A stretch of DNA of 64,000 nt from Parcubacteria group bacterium (GCA_016186395.1 JACPLU010000002.1:11470-75469); one strand, 5' to 3'. Positions 36,500 to 61,502 are shown, numbered from the stretch's first letter. Notes: generated by a model not told the origin, from the sequence alone. Made by a program: numbers and translations.

Positions 36500-36645
36500 C
36501 TAGTGAATAATACTCTTTCTCTTTCTTCGCAAATCCCAGCGTGATTTGCTCAGGGGTTGAGCTCTTCGCTCTTCTTTCGCTTTCAGCGAAAGAAACCATG
36601 CCCGCGAAGGGCTCAAAACCCGTTCAAAAGCATTATTCACTAGAC
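36500..36645 (+). repeat. Intergenic modular repeat family A, copy 1
   Basis: 5' gtgaataatactctttctctttcttcgcaaatcccag ... ccatgcccgcgaagggctcaaaacccgttcaaaagcattattcac 3'; termini are inverted repeats. Confidence 0.7.
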
Positions 36646-36656
36646 TCGGTATTGAA

Positions 36657-37040
36657 TTACTGGCATCTTGTTCCAAATACTCTACCTAATGAAAAATCAT
36701 CATAACCAATAAAGGCGGCGACTGTTTCCACCAGAATAAAGGCTCCAAAAATTACTATTGCTCCCACAAAAGCCCATAAAAGTTTTTGTTTGGTTTTAGC
36801 CAGCGCATCCGCTTCTCGGCTAGTCATTGTTTGCCAGCCGTATAGTAATAATACAATAACCATAAAAAACATGGCAACACGTATTCCCCAACAGCTTAAT
36901 CTGGCAATTATATTTAATAGGTTATCAAATTCTAAATTTATTGGGGGTAGCTCTTCGTGACTACTGCCCCATGCCAAAATTGGCGCTAGAAGTGCCACAT
37001 TGATTAAGGAACCATAAATTAATCTTTTAATCCTTAACAT
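36657..37040 (-). CDS. Small membrane protein, VirB2-like paralog 4 (more divergent)
   Basis: Signal/TM at N-terminus, two C-terminal hydrophobic helices separated by TSREADALAKTKQK. Confidence 0.35.
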   Translation of the reverse strand: MLRIKRLIYGSLINVALLAPILAWGSSHEELPPINLEFDNLLNIIARLSCWGIRVAMFFMVIVLLLYGWQTMTSREADALAKTKQKLLWAFVGAIVIFGAFILVETVAAFIGYDDFSLGRVFGTRCQ

Positions 37041-37062
37041 ACAAATTTGTGTCCTCTACCAT

Positions 37063-37986
37063 CTACGACCCAAGATCCAAAATACTTCTTATAAGCGCGA
37101 TAAATCCTTTACCGATAAATACCACTGCCAAACCTATTAAAGCGTAAGTTAAAGCTTTTTTAGCTTCAGTAACTTTAGCCGGCTCGCCTTTGGCAAGCAT
37201 AAACTTAATTCCAGCGTAAATAATGATAATCGGAGCAACCACTAAAACTATATTAAAAATTGCATTAGCAATACCATTGGCCAAATCTTCGATTGATTCT
37301 GCATCAATTGGATTTGATATTCCAAAAGGGATATCTTGACCTGTTCCTCTGCCAGAAGTTTCACAGCCACTTTGGCTACAAAGAGCTGCATCGGGAAAAG
37401 AATTTGGCGCGTTGGAATCATTTGTCGTAACACACTGATTATTTTGACAAATCCATTTTTGACCTGCCTGGGCTTTAATCTGTCGCACTGCAAGTAGCTG
37501 CCACTCCGTATCACAATCACCATTACAATCCCAACCATAACTTTTCCCCTTCAATTCAGTACCCGTATCAGGCTGAATCCCTATCGCTTTTATATAGTAG
37601 TCCCTACGCGCCCCAGCTCTTTGGATAGCACAGGCATACGATGGGCATTCTTCACCAGCACTCAATTCAATTTCTACTCTTTGAGTGTCTTTTTCAATTG
37701 TAAGAGTATGGCCCAAAACTGGAATATCTTGTAATGATCCATCTGCTGTCACCAATAATTCCAATCTTTCCCCCTCGCATTCTCTATAATTAACAAGTCT
37801 TACCAACACATTAAAATGAAATGGTGCGCTATCACGAAATTGTTGATTCTGTGTGGTAGGACTCCAGTCTAGTGTTGCTGTACAAATTGCGGCATAAACA
37901 TATTCAACCAACAAAAATGAACTTAAAATAAAAAAGGCCACGATAACGAAAAATATAAACCTAAACTTCCAAATCATTTTAGACAT
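37063..37986 (-). CDS. Cys-rich extracellular-domain protein with C-terminal VirB2-like two-helix module (paralog 5, 307 aa)
   Basis: N-terminal TM, ~200-aa Cys-rich ectodomain, C-terminal IYAGIKFMLAKGEPAKVTEAKKALTYALIGLAVVFIG. Confidence 0.4.
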   Translation of the reverse strand: MSKMIWKFRFIFFVIVAFFILSSFLLVEYVYAAICTATLDWSPTTQNQQFRDSAPFHFNVLVRLVNYRECEGERLELLVTADGSLQDIPVLGHTLTIEKDTQRVEIELSAGEECPSYACAIQRAGARRDYYIKAIGIQPDTGTELKGKSYGWDCNGDCDTEWQLLAVRQIKAQAGQKWICQNNQCVTTNDSNAPNSFPDAALCSQSGCETSGRGTGQDIPFGISNPIDAESIEDLANGIANAIFNIVLVVAPIIIIYAGIKFMLAKGEPAKVTEAKKALTYALIGLAVVFIGKGFIALIRSILDLGS

Positions 37987-38105
37987 AATAAATAAAGTCT
38001 CATATCAAACGTATTAGTTAAAATTATAGCAAAAATAAGAAGAGGTTATTATACACACCCCCCTTTCGGTGAGAAGCTTGAAAAACTATCTAAGTATAGA
38101 CAATT

Positions 38106-38369
38106 TTATCTATAAATATCTTTTCGATGGGCAACATCTATCAACTGGATGATTTCGGGGTCTAGAAATTTAAAAATTACTCGCCAGTCGCGAGTAATTC
38201 TAAACGAGAAAAAACCGGTTAATCCTCCTGTAAGACTTTTGGTGTGAAGATGTGAATTAAATGGATTCCTTTGAAGAATTGCAATACATTCTGCTAATTT
38301 TTGCTTTAACTCGTTATCTAGTTTTTTCGCCGATCTAAGAAATCGACTGCCATATACAATCCTAATCAT
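38106..38369 (-). CDS. RelE/ParE-family type II toxin
   Basis: LTGGLTGFFSFRITRDWRVIFKFLDPEIIQLIDVAHRKDIYR matches the RelE/ParE C-terminal pattern. Confidence 0.65.
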   Translation of the reverse strand: MIRIVYGSRFLRSAKKLDNELKQKLAECIAILQRNPFNSHLHTKSLTGGLTGFFSFRITRDWRVIFKFLDPEIIQLIDVAHRKDIYR

Positions 38370-38586
38370 GGTCTGTCAACTGAAGTAAAAAAGAATCTTT
38401 ATCACTAAAAGTGTTTTTTACTTTCTCTTGGCTAGATTGTAATATTTTTTTTATAAAACTGGGTTTATATTGCCCTTCTTTGTCTTTACCAGCCATTCCA
38501 ATAACAAGAGAACGAAGATTTTGTATTTCTTTTTGAAGATTTTGTATTTGATTATTTAACCTAGGAATTGTTATCATTTGAGGCAT
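38362..38586 (-). CDS. Putative antitoxin partner of the RelE/ParE toxin
   Basis: 74-aa ORF overlapping the toxin start by 8 nt. Confidence 0.4.
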   Translation of the reverse strand: MPQMITIPRLNNQIQNLQKEIQNLRSLVIGMAGKDKEGQYKPSFIKKILQSSQEKVKNTFSDKDSFLLQLTDHD

Positions 38587-38856
38587 TGTTTAGAACTATA
38601 GCATATTACACTATTAAATCAACCATTACCCACGCATTAAAATCCCACGCTTTAACATATAGACTAGAGCAAAACTAAATAAAGGCATCATAAACCTCTG
38701 TTACTATGGCTAAATTTAAACAACTACTATCGACACCCGATGTTGATAGTAGTTGTAAAGGAATAACGAAAATTTGAAGAATGCCCCCAAAGCTGATAAA
38801 TTACTATTGGAAGCGTGCCAGAGAGGTTGAACGGGCCGCACTCGTCCCGAATAAGG

Positions 38857-38941
38857 CGGAGGGGTGGCCGAGTGGTTTAAGGCAACGGTTTCGAAAACCG
38901 TGTCCCTCTGGGGACTCGTGAGTTCGAATCTCACCCCCTCC
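38857..38941 (+). tRNA. tRNA-Ser (anticodon CGA), type II
   Basis: GGAGGGGTGGCCGAGTGGTTTAAGGCAACGGTTTCGAAAACCGTGTCCCTCTGGGGACTCGTGAGTTCGAATCTCACCCCCTCCG; anticodon loop TTCGAAA; long variable arm. Confidence 0.8.
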
Positions 38942-38957
38942 GCCTTGAACGGGATTA

Positions 38958-38999
38958 CGATTTGTAGCCGAAATTGTTATTTTAATTTCGGCTACAAAT
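38958..38999. repeat. Perfect 17-bp-stem hairpin immediately 3' of tRNA-Ser
   Basis: gatttgtagccgaaatt-gttatttt-aatttcggctacaaatc; no U-tract on either strand. Confidence 0.5.
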
Positions 39000-39007
39000 C
39001 TAAAAAA

Positions 39008-39053
39008 CCAGCGGGCGCAAGCCCTTGAAGGTTCAAGTCCTTCACCCACCGCC
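39008..39053 (+). other. Orphan tRNA 3'-end-like fragment (T-arm + acceptor 3' strand + encoded CCA) with no matching 5' half
   Basis: GAAGGTTCAAGTCCTTC ACCCACC G CCA; no GGTGGGT partner found upstream. Confidence 0.35.
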
Positions 39054-39110
39054 AGTTAAGAGTTGTTTCACTAAAATAATTACACCAAAATATAAAATCC
39101 GAGTTATTCA

Positions 39111-39440
39111 CTATCTGCGAATGGCAAGAGCAAAATGATCAAAATACCGTTCCAAATCAGAAAGAGAACTGCCATATTCTTTTCCACCATAAACAGCGTC
39201 GCAAAACACTTCCCGCGCTCGCCCGATTTCTTTTAAACGGCCACGCCAACGCAAGTCGGATAAGGTTAGATCAAAAAGTTCAAGCGCCCGGTCAATTGCA
39301 TTCTGGAAACGCTGTTCATCCTTACTTTGCGCCCGACGAGCACGACTTACTTCGCTCCCAATATTCCCAAGCTGTTCAAAAAGCGTGAATGTATACCACC
39401 GGCCTGCGGCAAGTTCTTTATGTAAAAATAGTCCATTCAT
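39111..39440 (-). CDS. Hypothetical protein
   Basis: 109-aa ORF with 4-nt overlap (ATGA) to the upstream gene; possible all-alpha NTP-pyrophosphohydrolase-like fold, not supportable from sequence alone. Confidence 0.25.
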   Translation of the reverse strand: MNGLFLHKELAAGRWYTFTLFEQLGNIGSEVSRARRAQSKDEQRFQNAIDRALELFDLTLSDLRWRGRLKEIGRAREVFCDAVYGGKEYGSSLSDLERYFDHFALAIRR

Positions 39441-39790
39441 ATCACAAGCTTTTTGATTATGGTTATCACTTTTTCGCGAATCTTTGAATCGTCAATCCCT
39501 CGAGAACGATTTCCAAAAGCTGGTTTGAGATTAACCATAGAGTCAAATTCAATAAAATCATCACCGGAATTATCGGGATAAATATTAACACCCCACACAT
39601 TTTCTTGCTTTGACCCTTCCTGCTCTATAAGCAAGACTTCTTCATCGACATGAAGTTCGCCACCTACGGCTATAATTTCTTGGTCAATATCCACTGCTGC
39701 CTTCACTAAATCGCCAAAACGTTCTTCGGCAATACTTTTCAGTTCGGATTTTAATATCGGTTTTTTAATAATTCGCATTTCCATATTCAT
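39437..39790 (-). CDS. Hypothetical protein
   Basis: 117-aa ORF translationally coupled to the downstream gene. Confidence 0.25.
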   Translation of the reverse strand: MNMEMRIIKKPILKSELKSIAEERFGDLVKAAVDIDQEIIAVGGELHVDEEVLLIEQEGSKQENVWGVNIYPDNSGDDFIEFDSMVNLKPAFGNRSRGIDDSKIREKVITIIKKLVI

Positions 39791-39914
39791 TATCTTACCA
39801 TGTAAAATTAAGATTACCAGTTATACACTGGCAATCTTAATTCGTAGTTAATACTCTAAACTTCTCCAAAGAATAGACTCCCATACTAATAGAGTATATA
39901 ATGGAATTAATCTA

Positions 39915-40514
39915 ATGAATTTTGCAGAAAATCAAAATCAAGAAAGAGAAACTTACTTTAACGAACTTGAGAATGCAACAAAGAATCAAGTGGATTTAGT
40001 TTCCGACGAACTTCAAATTGAAACAGCTGAAACAAGAAACGAACACCTCGACTCGCTTTTCGTTGAATGGTTGGCACCATCAATTCACCACCATCACGTT
40101 GACCATAGATGGCGAGCCACGGTAATTATAATATTGCTTGGCATGGCCGGTTTATCTATATTTTGGCAACAAAGTTTTTTGGGTGCAATTATGTTTATAG
40201 GCATTGCGTTAGTTGCCTCAATGCATTTTCACCAAGAGCCTGAACACATGAATGTCGGCATTCATCCGGCTGGGGTTAGCATAAACGACCATACTTTCTC
40301 TTATCAAAACATTGAATCTTTCTGGGTTCGATACGAGCCCGGACATATCAAAGAACTTAGTTTAAGATGTAAAAATCTTCTGCATCAGCATGTTAAAATA
40401 CCCTTAGGAGACGAGGACCCTAACAAAATTAGGGCTCAACTTGCAAAATACATACCTGAAGAAATCCATGAAGAAACATTTTCAGATTTTTTAGGAAGGA
40501 AATTAGGCCTATAG
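39915..40514 (+). CDS. Hypothetical membrane protein
   Basis: Two central hydrophobic helices (VIIILLGMAGLSIFW; AIMFIGIALVASM). Confidence 0.3.
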   Translation: MNFAENQNQERETYFNELENATKNQVDLVSDELQIETAETRNEHLDSLFVEWLAPSIHHHHVDHRWRATVIIILLGMAGLSIFWQQSFLGAIMFIGIALVASMHFHQEPEHMNVGIHPAGVSINDHTFSYQNIESFWVRYEPGHIKELSLRCKNLLHQHVKIPLGDEDPNKIRAQLAKYIPEEIHEETFSDFLGRKLGL

Positions 40515-40520
40515 AAGTCT

Positions 40521-40675
40521 GGTGAATAATACTCTTTCTCTTTCTTCACAAACCCCAGCGTGGTTTGCTCAGAGATTGAACCCTTCGCTCTTCCTCTATA
40601 TGATTTAAAATCAGATAAAGGAAACCATGCCCGCTTCGGGTTCAAAACCCGTTCAAGAGCACTATTCACTAGACT
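40521..40675 (+). repeat. Intergenic modular repeat family A, copy 2
   Basis: ggtgaataatactctttctctttcttcacaaaccccagcgtggtttgctcag ... ccatgcccgcttcgggttcaaaacccgttcaagagcactattcac. Confidence 0.7.
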
Positions 40676-40739
40676 TTAAGGGTTTAACTTCTTAAATAAT
40701 GATTTTTGTGATAAGCAATTCTTAAAAGAGTTGTTTTTT

Positions 40740-40813
40740 GTCCCCGTAGCTCAGTTGGATAGAGCGTGGGTTTGCGGAACCCAAGGCCGCGTGTTCGAAT
40801 CACGCCGGGGACA
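40740..40813 (+). tRNA. tRNA-Arg (anticodon GCG as read from loop TTGCGGA)
   Basis: GTCCCCGTAGCTCAGTTGGATAGAGCGTGGGTTTGCGGAACCCAAGGCCGCGTGTTCGAATCACGCCGGGGACA; acceptor and D-arm nearly identical to the tRNA-Arg at 8377-8450. Confidence 0.7.
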
Positions 40814-40883
40814 CTAATCAAAATCCTGCCAAATGGCGGGGTTTTGATTGCTGAAATTAAATTTCTAGGATACTCTTGAATTC

Positions 40884-43097
40884 ATGTGGAACCCAGAGAC
40901 TCAAATTACAGAGCTTAAATATATTGGAACCGCATACGTAAAAAAATTAAATAGACTCGGCATTGAAACCGTAAAAGATTTGCTATGGCATTTCCCAATG
41001 CGTTATGAGGACTTTAGTGAATACTCCCCTATCGCAGAGATTAAACAAGGACAAAAAGTTTCGATTTTAGGAAAAATAGTCAGCATAAAAAATCAAAGAA
41101 CATGGAAACATAGATTAATTTTAACTAACGCAGAAATTGAAGATGAAACTGGGGTTATAAAGACTATTTGGTACAACCAACCGTTTTTGATTAAAACCCT
41201 TAAAGAAGGTTTGAATATCAGTTTATCGGGTAACGTAAAGTTGGATAAATATGGACTTTACCTACAAAATCCAAGCTATGAAATAATCTCCCAAATATCT
41301 CAAGATTCAAGCTTCCCCAGGCCGTACGCCAACGGCGGGGCAGACAAGATCCAAGTTTCAAGACTAAAACATACCGGGCGGCTAGTGCCAATTTATCCTG
41401 AAACAGAAAGACTTTCATCCCGCTACTTGAGATTTCTTATCAAACCACTGCTTAATAAAATTGGTCCGATTCCTGAATGGTTACCGAGTTTGATTTTAAA
41501 AAAACACAATCTGCCGGCTATTAGAAAAGCTTTAGTGCAAATACATTTTCCAAACTCGGAAGAAGAAACTAAATCTGCTAAAAAAAGGTTTGCTTTTGAA
41601 GAACTGTTCTTATTCCAACTAAAAGCATTACAAGAAAGAAAAAGATTAAAAACTTCTTCTGCATCTATAATATCTTTTAACAAACAACTGATAAAAGAGT
41701 TTGTTGGATCTTTGCCGTATAAATTAACCAACGCTCAAAGAATAGCTTTATGGGAAATCATCCAAGACCTAAATAAACCACATCCAATGAACCGCTTGTT
41801 AAACGGAGATGTAGGCTCTGGTAAAACTATTGTAGCAGCGGCGGCGGCATTGGAAGTGGCAAAAACAAATTATCAAGTTGCCTATCTGGCACCGACAGAA
41901 ATCTTAAGTCACCAACACTTTATTACCTTTAAAAACGTCTTAAAGAATTTTAACTTGACTTTGGCCGTAGTGACTGGTTCTGGAGCCAAAGTCTTTGAAG
42001 ATGGGTTAGAGTATGAAATCAAAAAACCAAGACTAATAGAAAGACTGGCAAAAGGGGAAATTCATATTGTTATAGGAACACATGCCTTAATTCAAAAAAG
42101 TATAAACTTCAAAGACCTGGCCTTGGTTATAATAGATGAACAACATCGATTCGGCGTCAAACAACGCGCCGAACTCTTAAAAAAGGGGTACGAAAATCGT
42201 ATCCCCCATCTTCTATCCATGACAGCTACACCTATCCCAAGAACCTTGGCTTTGGCTTTGTATGGCGACCTGGACTTATCCGTCCTAAATGAAATGCCAA
42301 AAGGCAGACAAAAAATAAAGACAGAGCTTGTAGGAATCAATCAACGAGAAAAAGCCTATGAATTTATCAGAAACCATATAAAAATAGGAAGACAAGTGTT
42401 TGTAATATGCCCCAGAATCGATGTAAAACGCATCGATTCTAACAATCAACAACCGACTATCAACTATCAATCCAAACCCCTAAGACAGCTTTCGTTAAAA
42501 GAATCGGAGACTTTAGAAAAAAAGGCGGTGGTAACAGAATATGAAAAGCTTTCCAAAAATATATTTCCGGACTTAAAAGTTGCCATGCTTCATGGAAAAA
42601 TGCGACCCAAGGAAAAAGGAACGATTATGCAACAATTCAAAAATAAAGAATTTGATATTTTAGTTGCAACATCCGTCATTGAAGTTGGCATAGATATTCC
42701 TAATGCTACAGTTATGGCGATTGAGGGGGCAGAGTATTTTGGCTTAGCCCAATTACATCAATTTAGAGGCCGAGTTGGCCGAGGTGAATACCAATCACAC
42801 TGCCTACTTTTTATTGAATCGCCAATGGTTGCTACAACAAGACGGCTATCCGCACTTTTAAAATATGATGACGGCTTTAGATTGGCGGAGATGGACTTAA
42901 AAATCCGTGGCCCCGGAGAATTCTTAGGTTCGGAACAATCAGGAATACCAGATTTAGTTATGAGTTCGTTAACTGATCTTGAGTTAATTAAAAAAACCCG
43001 CAATGAAGCTAAGTTAATATTAGAGAGTGGAATAGAAAAGTACCCCAGAATTGAACAAAAATTAACAGAATTCTCTCAAACAATACATTTAGAATGA
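40884..43097 (+). CDS. recG: ATP-dependent DNA helicase RecG
   Basis: Walker A LLNGDVGSGKT, DEQHRFGV (DEQH box), N-terminal OB/wedge region, TRG-like C-terminus. Confidence 0.8.
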   Translation: MWNPETQITELKYIGTAYVKKLNRLGIETVKDLLWHFPMRYEDFSEYSPIAEIKQGQKVSILGKIVSIKNQRTWKHRLILTNAEIEDETGVIKTIWYNQPFLIKTLKEGLNISLSGNVKLDKYGLYLQNPSYEIISQISQDSSFPRPYANGGADKIQVSRLKHTGRLVPIYPETERLSSRYLRFLIKPLLNKIGPIPEWLPSLILKKHNLPAIRKALVQIHFPNSEEETKSAKKRFAFEELFLFQLKALQERKRLKTSSASIISFNKQLIKEFVGSLPYKLTNAQRIALWEIIQDLNKPHPMNRLLNGDVGSGKTIVAAAAALEVAKTNYQVAYLAPTEILSHQHFITFKNVLKNFNLTLAVVTGSGAKVFEDGLEYEIKKPRLIERLAKGEIHIVIGTHALIQKSINFKDLALVIIDEQHRFGVKQRAELLKKGYENRIPHLLSMTATPIPRTLALALYGDLDLSVLNEMPKGRQKIKTELVGINQREKAYEFIRNHIKIGRQVFVICPRIDVKRIDSNNQQPTINYQSKPLRQLSLKESETLEKKAVVTEYEKLSKNIFPDLKVAMLHGKMRPKEKGTIMQQFKNKEFDILVATSVIEVGIDIPNATVMAIEGAEYFGLAQLHQFRGRVGRGEYQSHCLLFIESPMVATTRRLSALLKYDDGFRLAEMDLKIRGPGEFLGSEQSGIPDLVMSSLTDLELIKKTRNEAKLILESGIEKYPRIEQKLTEFSQTIHLE

Positions 43098-43110
43098 TGA
43101 AAACGAGTTT

Positions 43111-43326
43111 GGCGAATAACACTCTTTCTCTTCCTTCGCAAACCCCAGGACTTCGACTGAGCTCAGTCGAATGCCCGTGGTTTGCTCAGGGGTTGAGCCC
43201 TTGCGCCACCGCTGAAGCTAAGGCGGCACGCGGTCGCTCTTACCCCCACCTGATTTAACGATCAGATGGGGGTAAACCATGCCCGCTATGGGCTCAAAAC
43301 CCGTTCAAGAGTATTATTCGCCAAGC
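43111..43326 (+). repeat. Intergenic modular repeat family A, copy 3 (with extra internal hairpin module)
   Basis: ggcgaataacactctttctcttccttcgcaaaccccagg-acttcgactgagctcagtcg... ccatgcccgctatgggctcaaaacccgttcaagagtattattcgcc. Confidence 0.7.
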
Positions 43327-43359
43327 TCAAAACACGACTTCAAATTATTTCCTCCTTTC

Positions 43360-44934
43360 TTAGCTGGTTTTTGAATTACTTCTAATTTTCGGCGTCACCC
43401 AGAAACCCATATATTTTCCAAACATTAAACGGGTCTGGGCATCAAAACCCGGAAGAGCACCTAATAAAATCATGGTTACAGGCATTAAAATCCACTGTAA
43501 AACCATTATTAAATATCTAAACCTTCCATATTGTGGAGGACGAGGCGGTAAGATAATTATTGATAAAACAGCCGACGATATAACCCCAACCATTGCCGCA
43601 GTCATGATATACCTGGTAATCAACGGGAGATTTAAAGAAAGAACCGTTTGATTAAAAATAGGTCCGCCAACAACCACTGGGAGCCATCCTAATATAAATA
43701 CTATCAAGGCATTGGTAGACCAAGACCAAAATCCCTCAACCATAAAAAATCCGTGTTCCAATTTTTTTCCAAAAGGTATTTTTTTATTTTTTATAAACCC
43801 ATAAAAAAGGTAGGGTATATTTTCTACTCCCCAACCCCAGCGACGCTGTTGCTTATAAACATTGACCATGGTCCCCCAAAAAGAATGGGCCACATTTGCG
43901 TCCATAGAAACCGGGTAGTTTAAAGGAACCACCCTATAATTTCCGTCGTATCTTAGAAAACATTGAAAGAAAATTCTTGAATCTTCAGAAACCATATTTC
44001 TTTGCCAGAAATTAACGTCAACTAAAGCTTGAAAGGGCATAGAGTGGCTTGAAAAAGTCCGCAACCTTTCTTCTCTAGCCTGTTGAATTGTATGCCAAAA
44101 AGTTGCTGAAAAAGCCACCACTCTGGCAGGAGAAGGTGCTTCCCAAATATTATTTGTATAAAAAGGCACTGGTTGATAAGAAGCTCTTAAAGGATCCGAT
44201 GCAGTCAAAAAAACATAAGTGAGTCTGGCAAAATATTGAGAGGAAACTATTGTATCGATATCCAAGGCCGAAACAAGTATATTTCTATAATCAATACTGC
44301 TGGCGTCAATCAATTCTTTTGCCTTTTGTCCGGCCCATGCAATATTAGAACCCTTGCCTGCGATTTCCTTTTCCAACCCTACCGGATGAACGGTTAACAG
44401 AAAACGAAAGAACCTATCTTTATAGTCCCGCTCAATTTGTCGACCGATTTTTATTGCTTCAGGACCAGCTTTTTCTTCTGCGGCAAGAACTAATATAATT
44501 TTTTCTTTCGGATATTCTGATTTCAATAAACTCTCAACTGTGTTTTGAACAACAAAGTAATCTTCTTTATAAAAAGGTAAAAAAATTAAATGATATATAT
44601 CTTGCCAGTTCTTAGTCAATCCGTTTGTTATAATAAAATGAGGGCCCTGAATTTTTTCCAACCAGTTAATTTTAAGATTCCTCTGCATCTGATTAAAAGC
44701 TACTCTCAAATGAAGTGATAAATATATGGTTTTAATAAACCAGTAAACATCAAAGGCGATAATAAAAAAGGCCATGAAAACAGGCCACAGAAATGACCCT
44801 AGGATAATAAAAATAATAGTTCCCCAAGCCAAAACACCCGGCATGATCTCTAAAATTCTATAGAGATACTTGCCCTCTTGTGGCTTAACTTCTTTAGCAT
44901 TACCAATATGAATGTAGTAAGGTAGATTTTCCAT
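43360..44934 (-). CDS. Processive family-2 glycosyltransferase (cellulose/chitin-synthase-like), multi-TM
   Basis: QQRRWGWG (QxxRW), ALDIDT Asp-containing motif, several TM helices at both ends. Confidence 0.55.
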   Translation of the reverse strand: MENLPYYIHIGNAKEVKPQEGKYLYRILEIMPGVLAWGTIIFIILGSFLWPVFMAFFIIAFDVYWFIKTIYLSLHLRVAFNQMQRNLKINWLEKIQGPHFIITNGLTKNWQDIYHLIFLPFYKEDYFVVQNTVESLLKSEYPKEKIILVLAAEEKAGPEAIKIGRQIERDYKDRFFRFLLTVHPVGLEKEIAGKGSNIAWAGQKAKELIDASSIDYRNILVSALDIDTIVSSQYFARLTYVFLTASDPLRASYQPVPFYTNNIWEAPSPARVVAFSATFWHTIQQAREERLRTFSSHSMPFQALVDVNFWQRNMVSEDSRIFFQCFLRYDGNYRVVPLNYPVSMDANVAHSFWGTMVNVYKQQRRWGWGVENIPYLFYGFIKNKKIPFGKKLEHGFFMVEGFWSWSTNALIVFILGWLPVVVGGPIFNQTVLSLNLPLITRYIMTAAMVGVISSAVLSIIILPPRPPQYGRFRYLIMVLQWILMPVTMILLGALPGFDAQTRLMFGKYMGFWVTPKIRSNSKTS

Positions 44935-44952
44935 GTTTTACTATTTTAACTT

Positions 44953-45015
44953 TGTAAATAATACTCTTTCTCTTTCTTCGCAAACCCCAGCGTTCAAGAG
45001 TATTATTCGCCAAAC
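44953..45015 (+). repeat. Intergenic modular repeat family A, copy 4 (minimal: the two termini joined)
   Basis: tgtaaataatactctttctctttcttcgcaaaccccagcg|ttcaagagtattattcgcc. Confidence 0.65.
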
Positions 45016-45066
45016 TCCTGTTTTATCATACATTAAGCCGCAAAAAAAGCCCGTATGTATGGGCCA

Positions 45067-45354
45067 TTATTTAATTGTGTGTTCATGCTTTAGATCAAAC
45101 TTATCGCGAAGTGCTGGAAAATCTTCAGGTTTTATTCCAATCTTTGCTCCATTAAAACTTGCCAACCTGTCTGGATTATCTAAAAGTTTTTTATCATTAG
45201 GAAAATGATCCCCCTTTGATTTTCCTGGCCTCAAATTTTTAGCACGGTCTGAAAAAATTTCAGCAAGACCCTTTTTAACAACCTGCCTTTGATCCCAACG
45301 AGAAATTAGTCTTCCGTTATTATGCAAAACTACCCTAACTTTTTGCTGTTCCAT
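45067..45354 (-). CDS. Small hypothetical protein (paralog pair member)
   Basis: N-terminal KVRVVLHNNGRLISRWDQRQVVKKGL parallels the neighbour's KIRVGFRNSNGDLIFRSKDQRGVEKGL. Confidence 0.3.
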   Translation of the reverse strand: MEQQKVRVVLHNNGRLISRWDQRQVVKKGLAEIFSDRAKNLRPGKSKGDHFPNDKKLLDNPDRLASFNGAKIGIKPEDFPALRDKFDLKHEHTIK

Positions 45355-45364
45355 TCTCTCCTCC

Positions 45365-45664
45365 CTATAATTCTACGACATCAAATATTTTATATAAATC
45401 GCCGATCTTTTTTGAAGGTATCTTTAACCCGCCATCACCATTGCCACCCTTAAACTTAGAAAATTGTTCTTTATCTGATCCGCCGAGTACATTTCTATAG
45501 ACTTTTCTTTCGGATTTATCGGATATTGGCACCGAAGGAATGTCTATTGGCCCACCTACTATATGATCCAAACCTTTTTCTACTCCTCTTTGGTCCTTAG
45601 AACGAAAAATAAGATCGCCATTGCTATTACGAAAACCTACCCTTATTTTGTCGTTAGTGGACAT
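45365..45664 (-). CDS. Small hypothetical protein (paralog pair member)
   Basis: See preceding; the two are tandem and separated by 10 nt. Confidence 0.3.
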   Translation of the reverse strand: MSTNDKIRVGFRNSNGDLIFRSKDQRGVEKGLDHIVGGPIDIPSVPISDKSERKVYRNVLGGSDKEQFSKFKGGNGDGGLKIPSKKIGDLYKIFDVVEL

Positions 45665-45690
45665 TTTATTCTCCTTAAATTTTAAATATA

Positions 45691-47966: not shown

Positions 47967-48008
47967 CTTGCATTCATCCGCGGCCTTACGGCCGCGGATG
48001 AATGCAAG
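47967..48008. repeat. Perfect 19-bp GC-rich hairpin
   Basis: cttgcattcatccgcggcc-ttac-ggccgcggatgaatgcaag; further hairpins 47818-47870 (cacgggc...gcccgtg). Confidence 0.5.
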
Positions 48009-48011
48009 TAA

Positions 48012-51508: not shown

Positions 51509-51587
51509 AGGCGGTAAAGCATGAAATGCCCGATGGACTAGAGCATTTGAATCTATAAGAACAAGTTTTTTTATTAAAATTTAAACT

Positions 51588-52088: not shown

Positions 52089-52115
52089 AATTTTACAATA
52101 ACGATCGGCTAAACC

Positions 52116-52490: not shown

Positions 52491-52601
52491 TCTAAAAATC
52501 TAACAGAAAACTACTCAAAACGCCATAAATACACCCACATAATATTGTACGACCCAATGATAAATACCAAAACCACAACTTAAAATTGTTTTAGTGTAAA
52601 G

Positions 52602-53804: not shown

Positions 53805-53888
53805 CTAAAAGTCTCTAACTGTGAACAGAAATGCTCTTATTTTTAGGCATTTTTAAATACTTATACTTAGAATTACAATTCAAACCCA

Positions 53889-55451: not shown

Positions 55452-55454
55452 TAA

Positions 55455-55811
55455 CTAAGAAGCTACTGCTTTTGCGCAATTAATACAAGTCAATGCGGTT
55501 GGAAAGGCATTAAGTCTTGGAGGCTCAATCGGTTTTTGACAATTTTGACACAAACCATAATCCCCCTTTTGAATGCTCTCAAGAGTCTTAACAATTTGAG
55601 ATAATTCAATTTCTAAAGCTGACTCGGTTGCTTTCAGTCTTTCCCAGTCAGCAACTTCCATAGCATTTTCATCTGAAGTGCTTCCATATTCAGGAAAGGG
55701 AATATCAAATTCACCACCTTTTCGATGGCCAATTTCAGCTAAACTCTTTTCAATATGTTCTTTTCGCTCTGTTAATATTTCCCCAAGTTTTTTGAGTTCT
55801 TTTTCAATCAT
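55455..55811 (-). CDS. DksA/TraR-family C4 zinc-finger protein
   Basis: C-terminal CQNCQKPIEPPRLNAFPTALTCINCA (CxxC...CxxC). Confidence 0.55.
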   Translation of the reverse strand: MIEKELKKLGEILTERKEHIEKSLAEIGHRKGGEFDIPFPEYGSTSDENAMEVADWERLKATESALEIELSQIVKTLESIQKGDYGLCQNCQKPIEPPRLNAFPTALTCINCAKAVAS

Positions 55812-55844
55812 ATTAGAAGAATATTAGCATTCAATTTTAAAAAT

Positions 55845-55954
55845 ATCAACCCCACCTAACTTTTATTTTAATAGACAGAATTACTAAATATTAATTAAGA
55901 CAATTATGTAGTTAAACTAATCAAATTTACACAAAAGTTAGGTGGGGGTTAATC
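55845..55954. repeat. Long-range inverted-repeat family B, copy 1 (leader of the DksA/TraR-like gene)
   Basis: aaccccacctaactttt ...68 nt... aaaagttaggtgggggtt. Confidence 0.55.
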
Positions 55955-56102
55955 CCAATCTTAATTCTTAAAACTCAAAGGCCGCACGAAATGAAAAGCT
56001 ATACTCGGTTGGTGACACCTTTTCGTGCGGCCTTGAATATATGGCTGCTAACCAGAGATACCTTTTTGGTCTTTGTTATCCCCAGTTAAATCTTACTCTA
56101 TA

Positions 56103-56131
56103 AATATATTTCTTTGACACACTATTGTCAA
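56103..56131 (-). promoter_or_regulatory. Sigma70-like promoter (TTGACA-17-TATATT) on the minus strand, -35 embedded in a 6-6-6 palindrome
   Basis: Minus strand reads gggTTGACAatagtgtgtcaaagaaaTATATTt; on plus ttgacacactattgtcaa. Confidence 0.45.
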
Positions 56132-56165
56132 CCCTATTTTGTGGATAAAGCTGTGTATAATTTTT

Positions 56166-56258
56166 GACATATCTTTGACATGTCAAAATATGTCAAAGAT
56201 ATGTCAAAAATGTTTCTCTTATTGTCAAAACACACCCGTTATGGGCATGTTTTGACTC
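56166..56258. promoter_or_regulatory. Array of TGACA/TGTCA palindromic operator-like repeats
   Basis: gacatatctttgacat-gtcaaaat-atgtcaaagatatgtc (16-bp inverted repeat); tttgacatgtcaaa; gtcaaaaca...tgttttgac. Confidence 0.4.
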
Positions 56259-56261
56259 GTA

Positions 56262-56296
56262 TAAAAATAAGCGGTCATATGACCGCTTATTTTTAT
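56262..56296. terminator. Bidirectional Rho-independent terminator
   Basis: aaaaataagcggtcatatgaccgcttattttta: perfect hairpin flanked by A- and T-runs at the 3' end of the minus-strand gene 56293..57759. Confidence 0.55.
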
Positions 56297-57759
56297 ATTC
56301 CCAAACTATTAAAATCTCCGATTTGGTCTATTAAAGAAAACATACTTTCTCTAGAGTTGGTTATTACAAAGTATTTCCCTCTATTTTTTGCTTTAATTAT
56401 AGCGTAATCAATTGTTTTATCCGGATAGGGGAAATTAATATAACGAACAACTGAATCCCCATAGAACGTCTCGAGAAATTGACCAGTTGCCGCATTATTT
56501 TTGTTATTAGTTAAAAATTCATTGATATCGGACACCAAAGTAGATTCCCAGATATTTAAAGCACTCCTTAATGCTACTTCATCTTTAACCTGGACTATTA
56601 AACCAATTTTTGACAACGGAGTGCTTGAATCTTTTTGAACTCCTTTGTCAAAATATTCTTTTTGGCCATACACCAAAACACTCCAGTCGTTTGTGTCAAT
56701 ATTATTTAGCAAATCGGAAGGGTGAATAATGTTAAAAAAACTTAAGAATTCCTCAAAAGTAAGGTTAGTTATTTGTTCAGGTTGATCTTCTCTAGTTGCT
56801 TTTGCGGTTAACCGAACAGATATAAATTGATTAAAGTCAAGATTTGAAGCCGTCAACTGCAATAAGGACCCCTCTTTAGTTATGGCTCGTTCTTTAAAAA
56901 AGTTATCGTCCACAGTCTCAACATCTGGAAATAGTTGACCCAAAAGAGGCAAAGGAGCCGGTGTTTCAGTAAGTATAGTCTCGGTAGGTGTAGGCGTAAA
57001 AGCTATTTCCGGTTCACGCATCAAATAAAGATAGGCCCCTCCGCCGATAATCAAAACTCCGATAACTATAAAAATAAGCTTTTTGCTTAAACCGGGTTTA
57101 GGGGTTGGAATTCCAATTGGGGGAGTAGTTTTTGGCAAAGAAGGTGCTAGGATTTTCGGCTGAAGTTGGGGTTGTTGTGGTTTAATTGGCTCGGGCACAA
57201 CTAATCCTTTGGTTTTCTCTGTTCCACCCATAGAGGCTTGAAAAGAAGGAGGACTAAACTTTGGAACTTCAACTTTGGGTTGCGATGGAGGCGGTAATTG
57301 CGATTTTTCTGGTTTTAGTTCTACCGGAGAACCAATTGGAGTCTTTCCTTTTTCTAAAGCCGAGAGATCATCCCTCATAGTTCTTACTTCACCTTTAATA
57401 ACCGTCTGATTCGAGGACAGGGGAGTGTTTGATAAGGGTGAAGTTGCCAATCCTCCTGTTCGTGGAGGAAAAGAAGATGGAGAACTTTGAGAAGGAGTCT
57501 GCATTGTAACAGGAGGCCTTTGAATAAAAGTCTGAACTTGGTTTGACGATGGTAAACTTGGCGTAGTTGACCCTATTCTTGGACTCAAAGGCGAGGTCAG
57601 AGGTGCTTGAGGATTTACAATCTTTGGAGGTAAATCTTTTAATATTTCCTCCAGCCCAATAACTGCCGATGAAGGTTTACTAGTAGAGTCGTTTGGCCTG
57701 GGTGGGGAAGTTTGAGTTGGTAAGTTTGTGTTTTCATCAGCCATAATTAAATAGTCCAA
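56293..57759 (-). CDS. Hypothetical membrane protein with long Pro/Ser/Thr-rich disordered N-terminal half
   Basis: Single TM LIFIVIGVLIIGGGAYLYLM in the middle; N-terminal PTQTSPPRPNDSTSKPSS...; globular C-terminal domain. Confidence 0.35.
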   Translation of the reverse strand: MDYLIMADENTNLPTQTSPPRPNDSTSKPSSAVIGLEEILKDLPPKIVNPQAPLTSPLSPRIGSTTPSLPSSNQVQTFIQRPPVTMQTPSQSSPSSFPPRTGGLATSPLSNTPLSSNQTVIKGEVRTMRDDLSALEKGKTPIGSPVELKPEKSQLPPPSQPKVEVPKFSPPSFQASMGGTEKTKGLVVPEPIKPQQPQLQPKILAPSLPKTTPPIGIPTPKPGLSKKLIFIVIGVLIIGGGAYLYLMREPEIAFTPTPTETILTETPAPLPLLGQLFPDVETVDDNFFKERAITKEGSLLQLTASNLDFNQFISVRLTAKATREDQPEQITNLTFEEFLSFFNIIHPSDLLNNIDTNDWSVLVYGQKEYFDKGVQKDSSTPLSKIGLIVQVKDEVALRSALNIWESTLVSDINEFLTNNKNNAATGQFLETFYGDSVVRYINFPYPDKTIDYAIIKAKNRGKYFVITNSRESMFSLIDQIGDFNSLGI

Positions 57760-57883
57760 ACAGTAAAAATCAACTTGAGATTAGTTTACTTATTAATACT
57801 AAAATTTAGTATCTATTTACTGTTAGATTTAAATTTAAATACTATTAAACTAATTGTAGAACAAGCAGTGATTTTTACTATCC

Positions 57884-57994
57884 ACACCCCCACCTAATTT
57901 TCGGTTTCGTTTATAAACATTTATGTTTAGAGGCCGTCTCTTTCAAAAAGACGATAACCAGTTCTTGACACAAAAATTAGATGGGGGCTAAAAT
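57884..57994. repeat. Long-range inverted-repeat family B, copy 2 (between the pnp stop and the downstream gene start)
   Basis: cacacccccacctaattttcgg ...~70 nt... aaaaattagatgggggctaaaat. Confidence 0.55.
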
Positions 57995-60081
57995 TTCATT
58001 GTTAAATTAATTCTTCCCAGTTCATCTATATTTTTAACCTTAACCTTAACTACATCGCCTAATTTGAGAGCATCTGAAACCCTTTCCACTCTTTTGGTAC
58101 TTATTTCCGATATGTGAACTAAACCCTCATGTCCTGGCATGATCTCAATAAAAGCTCCGAAGTCAAGAATTCTTTTTACTTTTCCCTCGAAAACTTCCCC
58201 TGGTTTAATCTCTCGAGTCAAACTCTTAATCCAAGCTATTGCTTTATCTGCCGCCTGACTTGTTTCAGCAGTTATAAAAATATTCCCATCATCCTCAATA
58301 TCTATATCCGCTCCGGTTTCACTTATAATTTCGTTTATAACCTTACCTTGTGGTCCTATAACTTTTCCGATCTTTTCCGGATTAATCTGCAACATATAAA
58401 TATGGGGTGCAAAAGGAGATAAGTCCTGTCTTGGATCTTTAATTACCTTCGCCATTGCCTCCAAAATTTCCTTTCTTGCCTTTTTTGATTGTTCAAATGC
58501 AGATTCCAAAATTTCTATAGTAACACCCTGAATTTTAACATCCATCTGAATTGCAGTTACACCATTTTCTGTTCCGGCTATCTTTAAATCCATGTCCCCG
58601 TGGTGATCCTCGGGACCTTGAATATCGGTAATAATCTTAAACTTCTTACCGTCATCTGAAAGCATCAAACCAGTCGAAATACCAGCCACTGGAGCAGATA
58701 TTGGCACTCCTCCATCCATTAAAGCCAGCGTAGAACCGCAAACCGAAGCCATTGAAGTTGAACCGTTAGACGACAAACTTTCAGAAACAATTCTCATTGT
58801 ATAAGGGAACTTGTCTTTGTCGGGAATCACTGCCATTAAGGCCCTTTCTGCCAAAGCCCCGTGTCCTATCTCACGCCTCCCCGTAAAACCCATTCTTCCC
58901 ACTTCTCCAGAAGAATAAGGGGGGAAATTATAGTGGTGCATGTAATGTTTTTTAATCTCCATCTCTGGAGTTTCAATCCATTGTTCAGCACTTGGAGCAG
59001 CTAGAGTAAGAATTGATAAAATCTGGGTTTGTCCCCTTGAAAAAAGACCCGTACCATGAGTTCTTGGTAAAATTCCGACGTCAATACTCAAAGGCCGTAT
59101 TTCATCAAGTTTTCTACCGTCAGGTCTTTTATTATTTTCCAATACTCCTTCGTGAACAACCCGGTCAATTTCCGATTCAAAGATTTCATCAGAATATTGC
59201 AACATCTTGCCAAGACCGGGATTATCCTTATGGTGTTCTTTGAGCCAGTCCTGCATTTCAGATTTTAGTTGATTTAACTCCTCATACATTGCCTGTTTAC
59301 TGCCCAAATAAATTGCTTTTTCTAAACGACTCCCCAAAAAGTTTCTTATTTCCGAAACCAAATCTTCTTGAGGTTCAAAAAAATCTATTTTTTGCTTTAC
59401 AGGTTTAAATTCCGCAATAATTTCTTTCTGAAATTCAATCATCTTCTGATACTGTTTTAATCCAAATTCAATGCCCCCAAGCACGACTTTATCATCCACA
59501 ATTTGTGCGCCAGCTTCGAGCATATTAATTCTCTCTTTTGGGCCGGAAACTACAACATCAAAATCGCTTTTACCAAGATCCGAAGAAATTGGATTTAAAA
59601 CATAATTCCCGTCTATCCTGCCGACCCGTGCGGCCGAAACAACACCATCAAAAGGAATATCAGATATCCCTAATGCCAGAGAAGCCCCAATAACCGAGGG
59701 AATGTCAGGATCGTTTAAACCATCATACGATAAAACCGTTGCTACGATTTGAATCTCATTTCGTATCCGACTATCAAAAAGCGGTCTTAATGTCCTATCT
59801 ATTAAACGGGCTGAAAGAATCGCCCCGTCTGAAGGTCGAGTTTCTCGTTTAACCCAACGGCTTCCCTTAATTTTACCGGCAGCATAAAAACGCTCTTCGT
59901 AATCGATAACTAAGGGCATATAATTTGCGTCTTTAGGCTTTTTATTCATTGTGGCCGTGACCAATACTGAAGTATCGGCATAGCGCACAAAAACGGCTCC
60001 ATTTGCCTGCCCAGCTAAACGGCCGATTTCTACGGAAAATTTACGACCGCCGTAGTCGGTCTCAAAGGTTTTTACAGACAC
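57988..60081 (-). CDS. pnp: Polyribonucleotide nucleotidyltransferase (PNPase)
   Basis: Two RNase PH-like domains, KH (GPQGKVINEIISETGADIDIEDDG) and S1 (GEVFEGKVKRILDFGAFIEIMPGHEGLVHISEIS) domains; 697 aa. Confidence 0.9.
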   Translation of the reverse strand: MSVKTFETDYGGRKFSVEIGRLAGQANGAVFVRYADTSVLVTATMNKKPKDANYMPLVIDYEERFYAAGKIKGSRWVKRETRPSDGAILSARLIDRTLRPLFDSRIRNEIQIVATVLSYDGLNDPDIPSVIGASLALGISDIPFDGVVSAARVGRIDGNYVLNPISSDLGKSDFDVVVSGPKERINMLEAGAQIVDDKVVLGGIEFGLKQYQKMIEFQKEIIAEFKPVKQKIDFFEPQEDLVSEIRNFLGSRLEKAIYLGSKQAMYEELNQLKSEMQDWLKEHHKDNPGLGKMLQYSDEIFESEIDRVVHEGVLENNKRPDGRKLDEIRPLSIDVGILPRTHGTGLFSRGQTQILSILTLAAPSAEQWIETPEMEIKKHYMHHYNFPPYSSGEVGRMGFTGRREIGHGALAERALMAVIPDKDKFPYTMRIVSESLSSNGSTSMASVCGSTLALMDGGVPISAPVAGISTGLMLSDDGKKFKIITDIQGPEDHHGDMDLKIAGTENGVTAIQMDVKIQGVTIEILESAFEQSKKARKEILEAMAKVIKDPRQDLSPFAPHIYMLQINPEKIGKVIGPQGKVINEIISETGADIDIEDDGNIFITAETSQAADKAIAWIKSLTREIKPGEVFEGKVKRILDFGAFIEIMPGHEGLVHISEISTKRVERVSDALKLGDVVKVKVKNIDELGRINLTMKF

Positions 60082-60115
60082 CTTTTTAAAGAAGGGTAGA
60101 GAAATTATGAATCAG

Positions 60116-60220
60116 CAACCCCCCACCTAATTTCTATATCAAAGACTTGCGACCATCTTTTTGATAAAGACAGCGCCCAGACACAAATATCTATAAATGA
60201 AATTGAAAATTAGATGGGGG
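60116..60220. repeat. Long-range inverted-repeat family B, copy 3 (pnp 5' leader)
   Basis: caaccccccacctaatttc ...~70 nt... gaaaattagatggggg. Confidence 0.55.
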
Positions 60221-60326
60221 AAAGACTCGGTACCAACACATAATCCGATATGAACTAAAGCTATAAATTCGTATACACTATTTGCAGGTGTATGTTTTGA
60301 TATCGAGCCTCTCCTTTTTAAAAAAT

Positions 60327-60854
60327 CTAATTCTTAAGTCTTCTACTCTCCTTGGTTAATAAGAATTTTTTAGGATCATCCTCTAAGTCAAAGAATCTCT
60401 CTGCGGCAGTTATTAACTTTGAAGAAGCACTTCTGCCAAAAGCGACTACCTCAACTGTCACTCCATGGTTTTTTAGATATTCAACCAATGGTATGGCATC
60501 ACCATCTCCACCAACTAAAACAATTACATCAACTTTGTCAATAAGACTGATTGCATCCACCGCCATACCCACATCCCAGTCTCCTTTTTTCATACCTCCA
60601 GCGAAAACCTGAAGATCTTTCATTTTTAAATAAAACCCTGCTCGCTCGAGTGCTTGAAAAAAAGATGCTTCTTCGGGCACATCACTTTTTATAACATAAA
60701 CAATAGCTTTTAAAAGATTCCTTCCATCAACTGCGGCCTTCAAAATCTCCCTAAAATTAACCTTCGCATGATAAAGATTCTTTGCTGAATGATACATATT
60801 TTGGGCATCAACCAGAACTGCCACTTTTTGAATATTTGTTGACTTTGGAGACAT
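60327..60854 (-). CDS. NYN-domain (LabA-like, PIN-related) protein
   Basis: VAVLVDAQNMYHSAKNL... and VVLVGGDGDAIPLVEYLKNHG match the NYN/LabA pattern; stop abuts the rpsO start. Confidence 0.55.
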   Translation of the reverse strand: MSPKSTNIQKVAVLVDAQNMYHSAKNLYHAKVNFREILKAAVDGRNLLKAIVYVIKSDVPEEASFFQALERAGFYLKMKDLQVFAGGMKKGDWDVGMAVDAISLIDKVDVIVLVGGDGDAIPLVEYLKNHGVTVEVVAFGRSASSKLITAAERFFDLEDDPKKFLLTKESRRLKN

Positions 60855-61123
60855 TATTTCTTAAGTTCGAGTTTCTTAATTAAACTAGCATACCTTTTAT
60901 GATCCTCCTTTTTAAGAAAGTCCAATAATCTTTTTCTTTTTGAGACCATTTTTAAAATCCCTCTTCGAGAAGAATTGTCTTTTTTGTGTTTTTCCAGATG
61001 TTTAGCTAATCGCTTAATTTCTTCGCTAAATAAAGCAACCTGGACCTCGGCTGATCCTGTATCTTTTTCATGCACTGCGTGCTTTTTTATAAGTTTTGTT
61101 TTTTCAGTACCAGTTAAAGCCAT
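60854..61123 (-). CDS. rpsO: 30S ribosomal protein S15
   Basis: TGSAEVQVALFSEEIKRLAKHLEKHKKDNSSRRGILKMVSKRKRLLDFLKKED matches bS15; internal Met gives 89 aa. Confidence 0.85.
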   Translation of the reverse strand: MALTGTEKTKLIKKHAVHEKDTGSAEVQVALFSEEIKRLAKHLEKHKKDNSSRRGILKMVSKRKRLLDFLKKEDHKRYASLIKKLELKK

Positions 61124-61182
61124 GCTAGTTAGAAAGCATATCATAACCTCACCTTTTTGGCAAATTAACTAAAAAAAGCTTG

Positions 61183-61502
61183 GTGAATAATACTCTTTCT
61201 CTTTCCTCGCAAACCCCAGGACTTCGGCTGAGCTCAGTCGAATGCCCGTGGTTTACTTAGGGGTTGAGCCCTTGCGCCACCGCTGAAGCTAAGGCGGCAC
61301 GCGGTCGCTCTTATCCCGCACCAATCAAGCACTGCAACGCAATACTGTTTTGGGTTTGAGTATGCCCTCCAGATACTGACTATCCTTTATATAAAAGAGT
61401 TACACTACTACAGCGTTATCCCAGAAAACTAGTGCTTGATTTGGTGACGGGGCCATGCCCGCTACGGGCTCAAAACCCGTTCAAGAGCATTGTCCACCAA
61501 GC
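61183..61502 (+). repeat. Intergenic modular repeat family A, copy 5 (longest, ~320 nt)
   Basis: ggtgaataatactctttctctttcctcgcaaaccccaggacttcggctgagctcagtcg ... ccatgcccgctacgggctcaaaacccgttcaagagcattgtccacc. Confidence 0.7.

Follow-up and report, generated by a model that had tools for sequence, protein, structure and literature searches.

A window of 64,000 nucleotides from a Parcubacteria group bacterium (GCA_016186395.1 JACPLU010000002.1:11470-75469; positions are counted from the first letter of this whole stretch) carries a family of dispersed, structured repeats, here called copies c1 to c5, together with a further element, c6, that shares their termini. We consider it probable that these repeats are a lineage-restricted family of non-autonomous transposable elements resembling MITEs, or miniature inverted-repeat transposable elements. 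The elements have terminal inverted repeats, are small and non-coding, lie dispersed and mostly between genes, and are mobile as judged from their presence or absence in relatives. Shared termini around an unrelated interior, clean presence or absence, a probable 5-bp duplication, the lack of coding capacity, the existence of subfamilies and the decay of individual copies together correspond to the definition of a MITE. The window comes from a metagenome-assembled genome (MAG) of the candidate phyla radiation, and its proteins are MBI2626727-786 (locus tags HYW77_*) in NCBI.

The copies were delimited with motifs taken from their ends. A 38-nt 5′ motif gave five matches on the plus strand at no more than 3 mismatches, against 0 expected in shuffles, and a 32-nt 3′ motif gave four, again against 0 expected, with c4 retaining just the last ~27 nt of it. 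A family profile run with nhmmer over the 64-kb window detected no copy beyond the known ones and matched c6 at its terminus only. The elements cover ~1.7% of the window and range from 71 to 329 nt, and the open frames in them are short and without function. An initial annotation of this DNA had proposed five dispersed, co-oriented copies at gene boundaries, and this was borne out with the sizes now refined: the six elements all fall between genes as NCBI annotates them, the copies in short spacers, and all five copies point the same way, although a shared orientation of five would arise by chance with probability 1/16 and carries no statistical significance. The ends that it had described for every copy hold for the others, but the CCATGCCCGC...GGGCTCAAAACCC part is missing from c4. 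Its general picture of a dispersed, structured and modular repeat of the ERIC, Correia or MITE kind is supported.

Presence and Absence of Copies in Close Relatives

Orthologous sites were taken from contigs of close relatives (Rifle/ANAN16 and other ENA assemblies) at 85-92% DNA identity. The c2 site is cleanly empty in contig L019, which reads ...TTATAG/GTTTAAC... where the window reads ...CTATAG(162-nt element)TAAGG/GTTTAAC..., the slash marking the shared junction. The c1 site, between the pilin-like genes HYW77_00770 and HYW77_00765, is likewise cleanly empty in contig L029; there the two genes share a 10-nt overlap, and the insertion point of c1 in the window falls a few codons inside the annotated start of the L029 ortholog. 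In the window the two genes are kept apart by c1, and the window gene has another start codon and N-terminus (MRYRVLNKNKNLWKSW in the window, 36477-36660, vs MPIIHQKISVIKKNLWKSW in L029, 180-200). Copy c5 is missing in contigs L004-L006, which have 179 bp of unrelated spacer instead, and both lineages have an occupied site at c3 and at c4. A distant, syntenic contig (L026), whose RecG is the next relative at 62% identity, has no family match, and its recG-GT2 and GT2-holA spacers measure 37 bp and 7 bp. These short spacers at the c3 and c4 sites indicate that c3 and c4 are also insertions, older ones. Polymorphism between strains at 85-92% DNA identity shows recent transposition in an episymbiont population.

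The flanks of the insertions suggest how they were made. The difference between occupied and empty site amounts to the element plus 5 nt at c2 and plus 6 nt at c1, and c3 is flanked by a perfect AAAAC direct repeat. Over six independent insertions the flanking 5-mers match at 18/30 positions, a value that random window pairs 150 nt apart reach in 1/10,000 trials (7.5/10,000 over k = 2-9). To judge from these sequences, the flanks probably carry a decayed 5-bp target duplication. The left flanks showed no shared motif, no conserved tetranucleotide and no TA.

Termini, Modules and Fold

Every copy is bounded by terminal inverted repeats with arms of 20-22 nt, 17-20/22 Watson-Crick pairs and 82-91% complementarity (consensus GAGCTTGGTGAATAATACTCTT, the terminal repeat of the family being also given as GAGCTTGGTGAATAAT), so that the terminal stem is 20-22 bp and not the 12-14 bp first described. 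The corresponding repeat of c6 is GGGCTTGGTGAACAAT / CATTATTCACCAAGCTC. Inside this stem (P1) the copies are built from helices P2, P3 and P4. The P1 5′ arm, 22 nt in c3, is followed by an invariant pyrimidine tract, TCTCTTYCYTC, and then by P2 (GCAAACC/GGTTTGC), the loop of which is 7 nt in c1 and c2 and holds the module P2a in c3 and c5. P2a contains a perfect 20-nt palindrome, TTCGACTGAGCTCAGTCGAA; at the c4 locus of the relatives it is present in L021/L022 and missing in L020/L023. Between the two strands of the long-range helix P3 (TTGAGCCC ... GGGCTCAA) lie the module P3a, which is optional, a conserved CGCTCTT and, variable in form, the hairpin P4. The AAACCATGCCCGC-loop stretch that comes next is conserved and can form a local hairpin competing with P3, and after it come CGTTC and the P1 3′ arm. 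In c1, P4 is a different, perfect 9-bp hairpin, and in c5 it houses a nested segment with arms at 61319-61333 and 61431-61446. The internal modules of the initial annotation are real, in the form of P2a and P3a in c3 and c5 and of the nested segment in c5.

The arms of the nested segment resemble those of an insert in a relative. In the spacer between the c2 site and tRNA-Arg, contig L019 has at 786-1076 a ~290-nt insert that a 16-bp inverted repeat (CACACCAATCAAGTTA / TAACTTGATTGGTGTG) delimits and that codes for a small GIY-YIG nuclease-like protein. Its arms share 11 and 17 matching nt with the two ends of the c5 segment, a likeness reached by 2/500 and 4/500 shuffles. If the likeness of the arms is a guide, the insert may represent another mobile family, of which c5 would hold a nested non-autonomous derivative.

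Folding is far below shuffles in every copy, with a minimum free energy (MFE) of -64.5 kcal/mol for c1 (z -9.5) and -111.3 for c3 (z -10.3), and z-scores of -5.2 for c5, -5.3 for c2 and -8.1 for c6. The element folds as DNA too (z -4.5), and in all ten sequences both strands fold with equal z-scores.

Decay at Occupied Loci

The c4 locus differs in size from strain to strain: 71 nt in the window, 131 nt in L003, 170 nt in L020 and L023/24 (without P2a) and 191 nt in L021/22 (with P2a). Because relatives carry 131-191 nt at the same locus, c4, which the initial annotation had described as just the two ends joined, is a deletion derivative and not the basic unit of the family. At this locus L003 has lost the stretch from P2 to the 5′ strand of P3 between TCGC/TCAC microhomologies, and at the c3 site the same contig keeps a 5′ stub of ~30 nt joined to the flank at a CTTTCTT microhomology. 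Near-total loss of structure is thus tolerated at these loci, which argues against a host function there. In addition, near-identical Rifle strains differ at 0-3 of ~400 nt in the flanks and at 2-9 of 130-190 nt in the element, with 33-60-nt indels besides. This excess may reflect gene conversion among copies or the gain and loss of hairpins, and equally may reflect assembly chimerism among repeat copies.

Compensatory Change and Its Interpretation

The helices were examined for paired changes on a nine-sequence alignment (five window copies and four orthologous variants) to which the structure (P1, P2, P2a, P3, P4) was written by hand. Standard pairs make up 92.6% of cells in this structure. 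Changes on both sides occur in 15/60 pairs, compared with 5.4 ± 1.6 in shuffles, none of which reached 15 (0/500), and in no more than 4 pairs when the partners were slid by 1-3 columns as a control. Clear compensations are a C-G to U-A change in P2 (c1), P4 of c2 vs that of c3, four P1 positions, and G-C to A-U changes at two different positions of P3, in the c2 and c4-locus copies. Of the 15 compensated pairs, 7 lie in P4, where the hairpins of c1 and c5 are non-homologous. RNAalifold, applied to the gapped alignment, recovered only the local hairpin besides P1 and P4; it missed P2 and P3, which rest on the manual structure. The compensatory changes claimed in the initial annotation are therefore present in excess of shuffles. 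The conclusion that it drew from them, that selection on structure speaks against a transposon, did not stand, given the empty sites in relatives, the decayed 5-bp direct repeat and the precedent of bcr1. MITEs classically fold into long stem-loops (PMC3184786), and compensation is compatible with a MITE because bcr1 joins 5-bp direct repeats, strain-variable sites and compensatory changes (PMC3184786).

The compensated helices also bear on a reading of the repeats as a lineage-specific structured non-coding RNA, either a small RNA (sRNA) or a cis-acting stabilizer or processing site of mRNA, with a fold selected by the host and the dispersed copies acting as genes or sites in their own right. 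We regard this as improbable. It would account for the strong folds (z -5 to -10), for the 15 pairs changed on both sides, for joining regions conserved at least as well as the stems, and for terminal parts at the c4 locus that are ~93% identical between window and relatives next to a spacer that is ~67% identical. However, G-U pairs are not in excess over A-C: read on the plus strand, the non-Watson-Crick cells comprise 12 G-U vs 19 A-C, and A-C would be G-U on the minus strand. This is the pattern of random transitions in a DNA palindrome and not of a selected plus-strand RNA, and the two strands fold equally well. Matches to promoter-like and terminator-like sequences in the copies occurred at shuffle level and were not conserved between copies, and Rfam, proposed earlier as a check for a known RNA family, gave no match for them. 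Rfam 15 run on the window returned five tRNAs only at gathering score, and matches with E up to 10 on c3 and c5 were chance-level. The copies take no uniform direction relative to the genes around them (sense at c2, antisense at c1 and c4), the near-total structure losses described above (in L003 the c3 stub and c4 deletion, in the window c4) are tolerated, and close relatives with the same genes do without copies. Between the sRNA and the MITE that the initial annotation had offered together, the mobility evidence thus favors the MITE, and strand counts, two-strand folding, promoter and terminator scans and Rfam speak against the sRNA.

We also think it unlikely that the repeats are hairpins moved as single-stranded DNA (ssDNA) by an HUH/Y1 enzyme that recognizes the folded strand, in the manner of a REPIN/RAYT-like system or an IS200/IS605 palindrome-associated derivative. 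The whole fold, down to the outermost stem positions, is kept by matching changes, the five copies lie in one orientation, the flank duplication is imperfect and the element folds as DNA, all of which such an enzyme would explain. Yet the ends pair with each other over 22 bp, where IS200/IS605 ends are separate subterminal hairpins, and no conserved tetranucleotide was found 5′ of the element. Moreover, a staggered double-strand cut fits the gain of element plus 5-6 nt at occupied sites and the shared 5-mers of the flanks. Scans of the window proteins showed no Y1_Tnp or RAYT domain, the copies show no unit resembling REP, and co-orientation has the chance probability (1/16) already given.

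Reading the copies as sites of a tyrosine recombinase, Xer/dif-like or folded as in integron attC sites, is very improbable: an XerC-like gene adjoins c5 and the copies are co-oriented like attC sites, but relatives keep the recombinase gene without c5, the intervening genes are housekeeping genes and not cassettes, and the termini, read directly, contain neither an 11-6-11 dif-type site nor a GTTRRRY core (RYYYAAC ... GTTRRRY).

Several observations weigh against a MITE-like origin and are gathered here. P2, P3 and P4 change on both sides as well, so that some constraint acts on the fold, at the level of ssDNA, cruciform or RNA. The outermost positions of the terminal repeats vary between subfamilies with matching changes on both arms, which fits recognition of the stem and is less commonly seen where a DDE transposase cuts the ends. 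Variation is slightly lower in unpaired columns (22/65 variable) than in paired ones (48/96); together with the matching outermost changes this would still allow a folded strand to be recognized. Only 1/6 sites has a perfect target duplication. Pfam and NCBIfam scans of the window proteins, among which are several uncharacterized orphan proteins, found no transposase, and within the window no extra pair of terminal repeats flanks an open reading frame (ORF) that could mark a transposase-bearing parent. Finally, the sample comprises 6 window copies and 4 distinct orthologous variants. The picture of a plain MITE that the initial annotation had set against its own is nevertheless largely what was found, in the empty sites and the decayed direct repeat, though not in a transposase-bearing parent within the window.

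For MITE-like elements, the following course of events is proposed. A transposase encoded elsewhere in the genome would recognize the termini and insert the element by a staggered cut of ~5 bp, leaving a short target duplication that would later decay. The fold would be kept in those copy lineages that are still mobilized, through selection on the element and not on a host function, and copies fixed at a locus would be free to decay. The modules would be hairpins gained and lost in loops, and would define the short (c1/c2) and long (c3/c5/c4-locus) subfamilies. A further version, which we hold to be unlikely, makes the fold itself the functional unit: a mobile structured nucleic acid with helices selected, as ssDNA or RNA, for a non-DDE enzyme, and with loops serving as landing sites for still smaller palindromic modules, namely P2a, P3a and the nested c5 segment with its GIY-YIG-insert-like inverted repeat. 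If true, it would amount to a nested "hairpin-in-loop" mobility system in a bacterium of the candidate phyla radiation, possibly with a domesticated RNA role.

The mobile DNA of the small, compact genomes of the candidate phyla radiation is little described. As members of a MITE-like family, the copies can serve as strain markers, and they break short-read assemblies (Logan contigs end inside c5). They also create spurious ORFs and false N-termini, so that in a streamlined genome of this kind the family counts chiefly as a sign of active transposition and as a hazard for annotation and assembly. Structure that is kept among copies, set against free decay at fixed loci, makes a neat example of selection acting on the element itself.

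Searches for Further Copies

No family copy was found outside this lineage among GTDB representatives, JGI, IMG/VR, plasmids and phages, and distant contigs. Exact-pattern scans with the 5′ and 3′ motifs had no match in GTDB species representatives; in JGI metagenomes they gave two chance matches inside a coding gene, and in IMG/VR either none or 8 chance matches, which the family profile scored at E > 0.1. BLAST of c3 against plasmids and phages had no match, and neither had the concatenated six-frame translation, which treated the copies as spurious ORFs, against a protein database at E ≤ 1. A Candidatus Taylorbacteria MAG contig (L028) that shares a serine recombinase with the window had no family member. 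A terminal-repeat match at 10302 was set aside as a chance match inside a 1370-aa gene.

Positions and Neighboring Genes

The positions of the elements and of their modules are collected in Table 1.

Table 1. Elements and internal modules in the 64,000-nt window.
Feature	Position	Strand	Description
Copy c1	36496-36647	+	152 nt; short subfamily, CTAG-type termini
Copy c2	40515-40676	+	162 nt; short subfamily
Copy c3	43105-43328	+	224 nt; long subfamily with P2a and P3a
Copy c4	44947-45017	+	71 nt; two ends only, degenerate left terminal repeat
Copy c5	61176-61504	+	329 nt; long subfamily plus nested inner segment
Element c6	1728-1889	.	162 nt; termini as in the family, unrelated interior with its own hairpins
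Module P2a	43149-43175 (c3), 61220-61246 (c5)	+	27-nt insert in the P2 loop
Module P3a	43203-43234 (c3), 61274-61305 (c5)	+	32-nt GC-rich hairpin in the P3 multiloop
Nested inner segment of c5	61319-61446	+	in P4; own inverted repeat CACCAATCAAGCACT ... AGTGCTTGATTTGGTG

The genes between the copies are housekeeping genes (recG, tRNA-Arg, polA, holA). Copy c2 follows immediately on the HYW77_00805 stop codon, with 63 nt between its end and tRNA-Arg(GCG); c3 lies between the convergent genes recG and GT2 glycosyltransferase; c4 ends 13 nt upstream of the GT2 start codon and is adjoined by an intrinsic-terminator-like hairpin (45048-45065, minus strand) of the gene upstream of it; and c5 lies between the divergent genes rpsO (S15) and the XerC-like recombinase. 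Two spurious ORFs had been ascribed to the repeats, and neither is annotated. The 184-aa ORF 36045-36599 is replaced in NCBI by a 144-aa version at 36045-36479 (MBI2626760), and ORF 40436-40669 proved to be open on the minus and not the plus strand; it is missing from the NCBI protein collection, as is a further repeat-borne ORF at 44933-45208. The gene content of the window fits the candidate phyla radiation, with small T4SS-pilin-like proteins (type IV secretion system), recG, polA, holA and tsaE. GC content across the window is 33-43%, and GC skew tracks gene orientation.

Element c6 is housed in a stretch of 1.3 kb without genes (1630-2936), which is unusual in a compact genome. Also in it are a hairpin at 1956-2050, the arms of which measure 36 nt, and, at ~2440-2830, a region richer in GC that looks structured; Rfam returned chance-level matches only over 1630-2936. 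At the other end of the window, the XerC-like integrase (Phage_integrase and SAM-like domain) occupies 61559-62470, 54 nt from c5; a link between it and the family was rejected, since relatives keep the gene without c5. An inverted-repeat element at 62472-62619, with 24-nt arms that are 92% complementary and 100 nt apart, starts two bases beyond the stop codon of the XerC-like gene and runs into the start of the following ORF.

Other features of the window were recorded in passing. Positions 21287-22892 (minus strand) and 22896-23057 hold a reverse transcriptase (RT, 322 aa) and then a trypsin-like peptidase (214 aa) with an 8-nt overlap. Each of the two has a match to PADLOC's RT-Protease_XI single-gene model for retron type XI (E 1.8e-119 and 5.9e-39), so that the usual RT-peptidase fusion is split here; a 534-aa fused version occurs in a Logan assembly (P0162). 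The non-coding RNA of the retron could be an inverted repeat that lies directly upstream, its arms of 31 nt separated by 100 nt. No evidence linked the repeat family to this RT at 21.9 kb. A large serine recombinase (Resolvase, Recombinase and Zn ribbon) is encoded at 26742-28298, by an ORF that overruns the opposite-strand tRNA-Glu at 28199-28274. Among the members of its cluster (90% protein identity) is a 488-aa protein of L028, the DNA being ~80% identical, and upstream L028 has a type III restriction-modification system where the window has orphan genes; the region looks like an integrative element with variable cargo. Two blocks of the window are missing from the relative contig L025, namely ~38040-38850, the region of a RelE/StbE toxin gene, and ~39050-39870, with the gene pair 39111-39790; these small genes around tRNA-Ser are strain-variable insertions or deletions. 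Perfect intergenic palindromes with arms of 18-22 nt occur at 34339-34375, 47967-48008, 56160-56211 and 56260-56297; two of them lie just upstream of an orphan 488-aa gene (56293-57759), and one adjoins tRNA-Leu.

Comparison With Known Repeat Families

Rfam and BLAST showed no relation of the copies to known elements, and the family is compared here with the repeats of other bacteria. Like BOX of Streptococcus pneumoniae, it is modular, with a variable number of internal units and predicted stable structures. BOX consists of boxA, tandem boxB units and boxC and has no long terminal inverted repeats, whereas the present modules are hairpins nested within a fold that the terminal repeats close, and not tandem units. 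REPINs and REP sequences are likewise hairpin-forming intergenic repeats with the stem kept, and a single-copy gene located elsewhere reportedly encodes their mobilizing enzyme, RAYT. REP units measure 20-40 nt, however, and the present family has no REP-like unit, no RAYT in the window, and flanks that suggest a target duplication. That same feature, together with ends that pair over 22 bp, sets it apart from palindromes derived from IS200/IS605, which have no terminal inverted repeats, make no duplication and have a fixed tetra- or pentanucleotide 5′ of the element.

Closer likenesses are found among elements of the MITE kind. Correia elements duplicate TA and carry promoter-like boxes and boxes that bind integration host factor (IHF); in contrast, no conserved promoter-like site was found in the present family. 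The two have in common terminal inverted repeats, full and internally deleted forms, and a mobility deduced by strain comparison, the Correia (NEMIS) elements of Neisseria being ~100-160 bp long with terminal inverted repeats of ~26 bp (PMC3184786). ERIC (also IRU), the 127-bp imperfect palindrome of Enterobacteriaceae that is classed as a MITE, resembles our copies in being an intergenic imperfect palindrome. Wilson and Sharp are said to have described in 2006 shorter and longer versions of ERIC that arose from internal deletions and from insertions at certain fixed points inside it. A TA motif flanks sequences of the ERIC type (PMC3184786), unlike the present copies, the flanks of which suggest 5 bp with no TA and which are restricted to one Parcubacteria lineage. 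Neither Rfam nor BLAST revealed sequence similarity to ERIC, the ERIC consensus itself not having been aligned.

The element bcr1 of the Bacillus cereus group, which is MITE-like and ~155 bp long, has 5-bp direct repeats, strain-variable locations and compensation that keeps its stems, and some of its copies have lost structure (PMC3184786). The present family matches it in size, in its non-coding fold-back form, in its strain-variable sites and in its compensatory changes, a likeness drawn on features and not on sequence. It differs in belonging to another phylum, in having nested hairpin modules and in a 22-bp terminal repeat common to a second, unrelated interior; bcr1, for its part, is transcribed. 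Papers on MITEs in bacteria of the candidate phyla radiation were not found in the literature searched. Taken as MITE-like, the repeats represent an ordinary type of element that had yet to be described in this lineage, and in behavior they are closest to bcr1 and ERIC.

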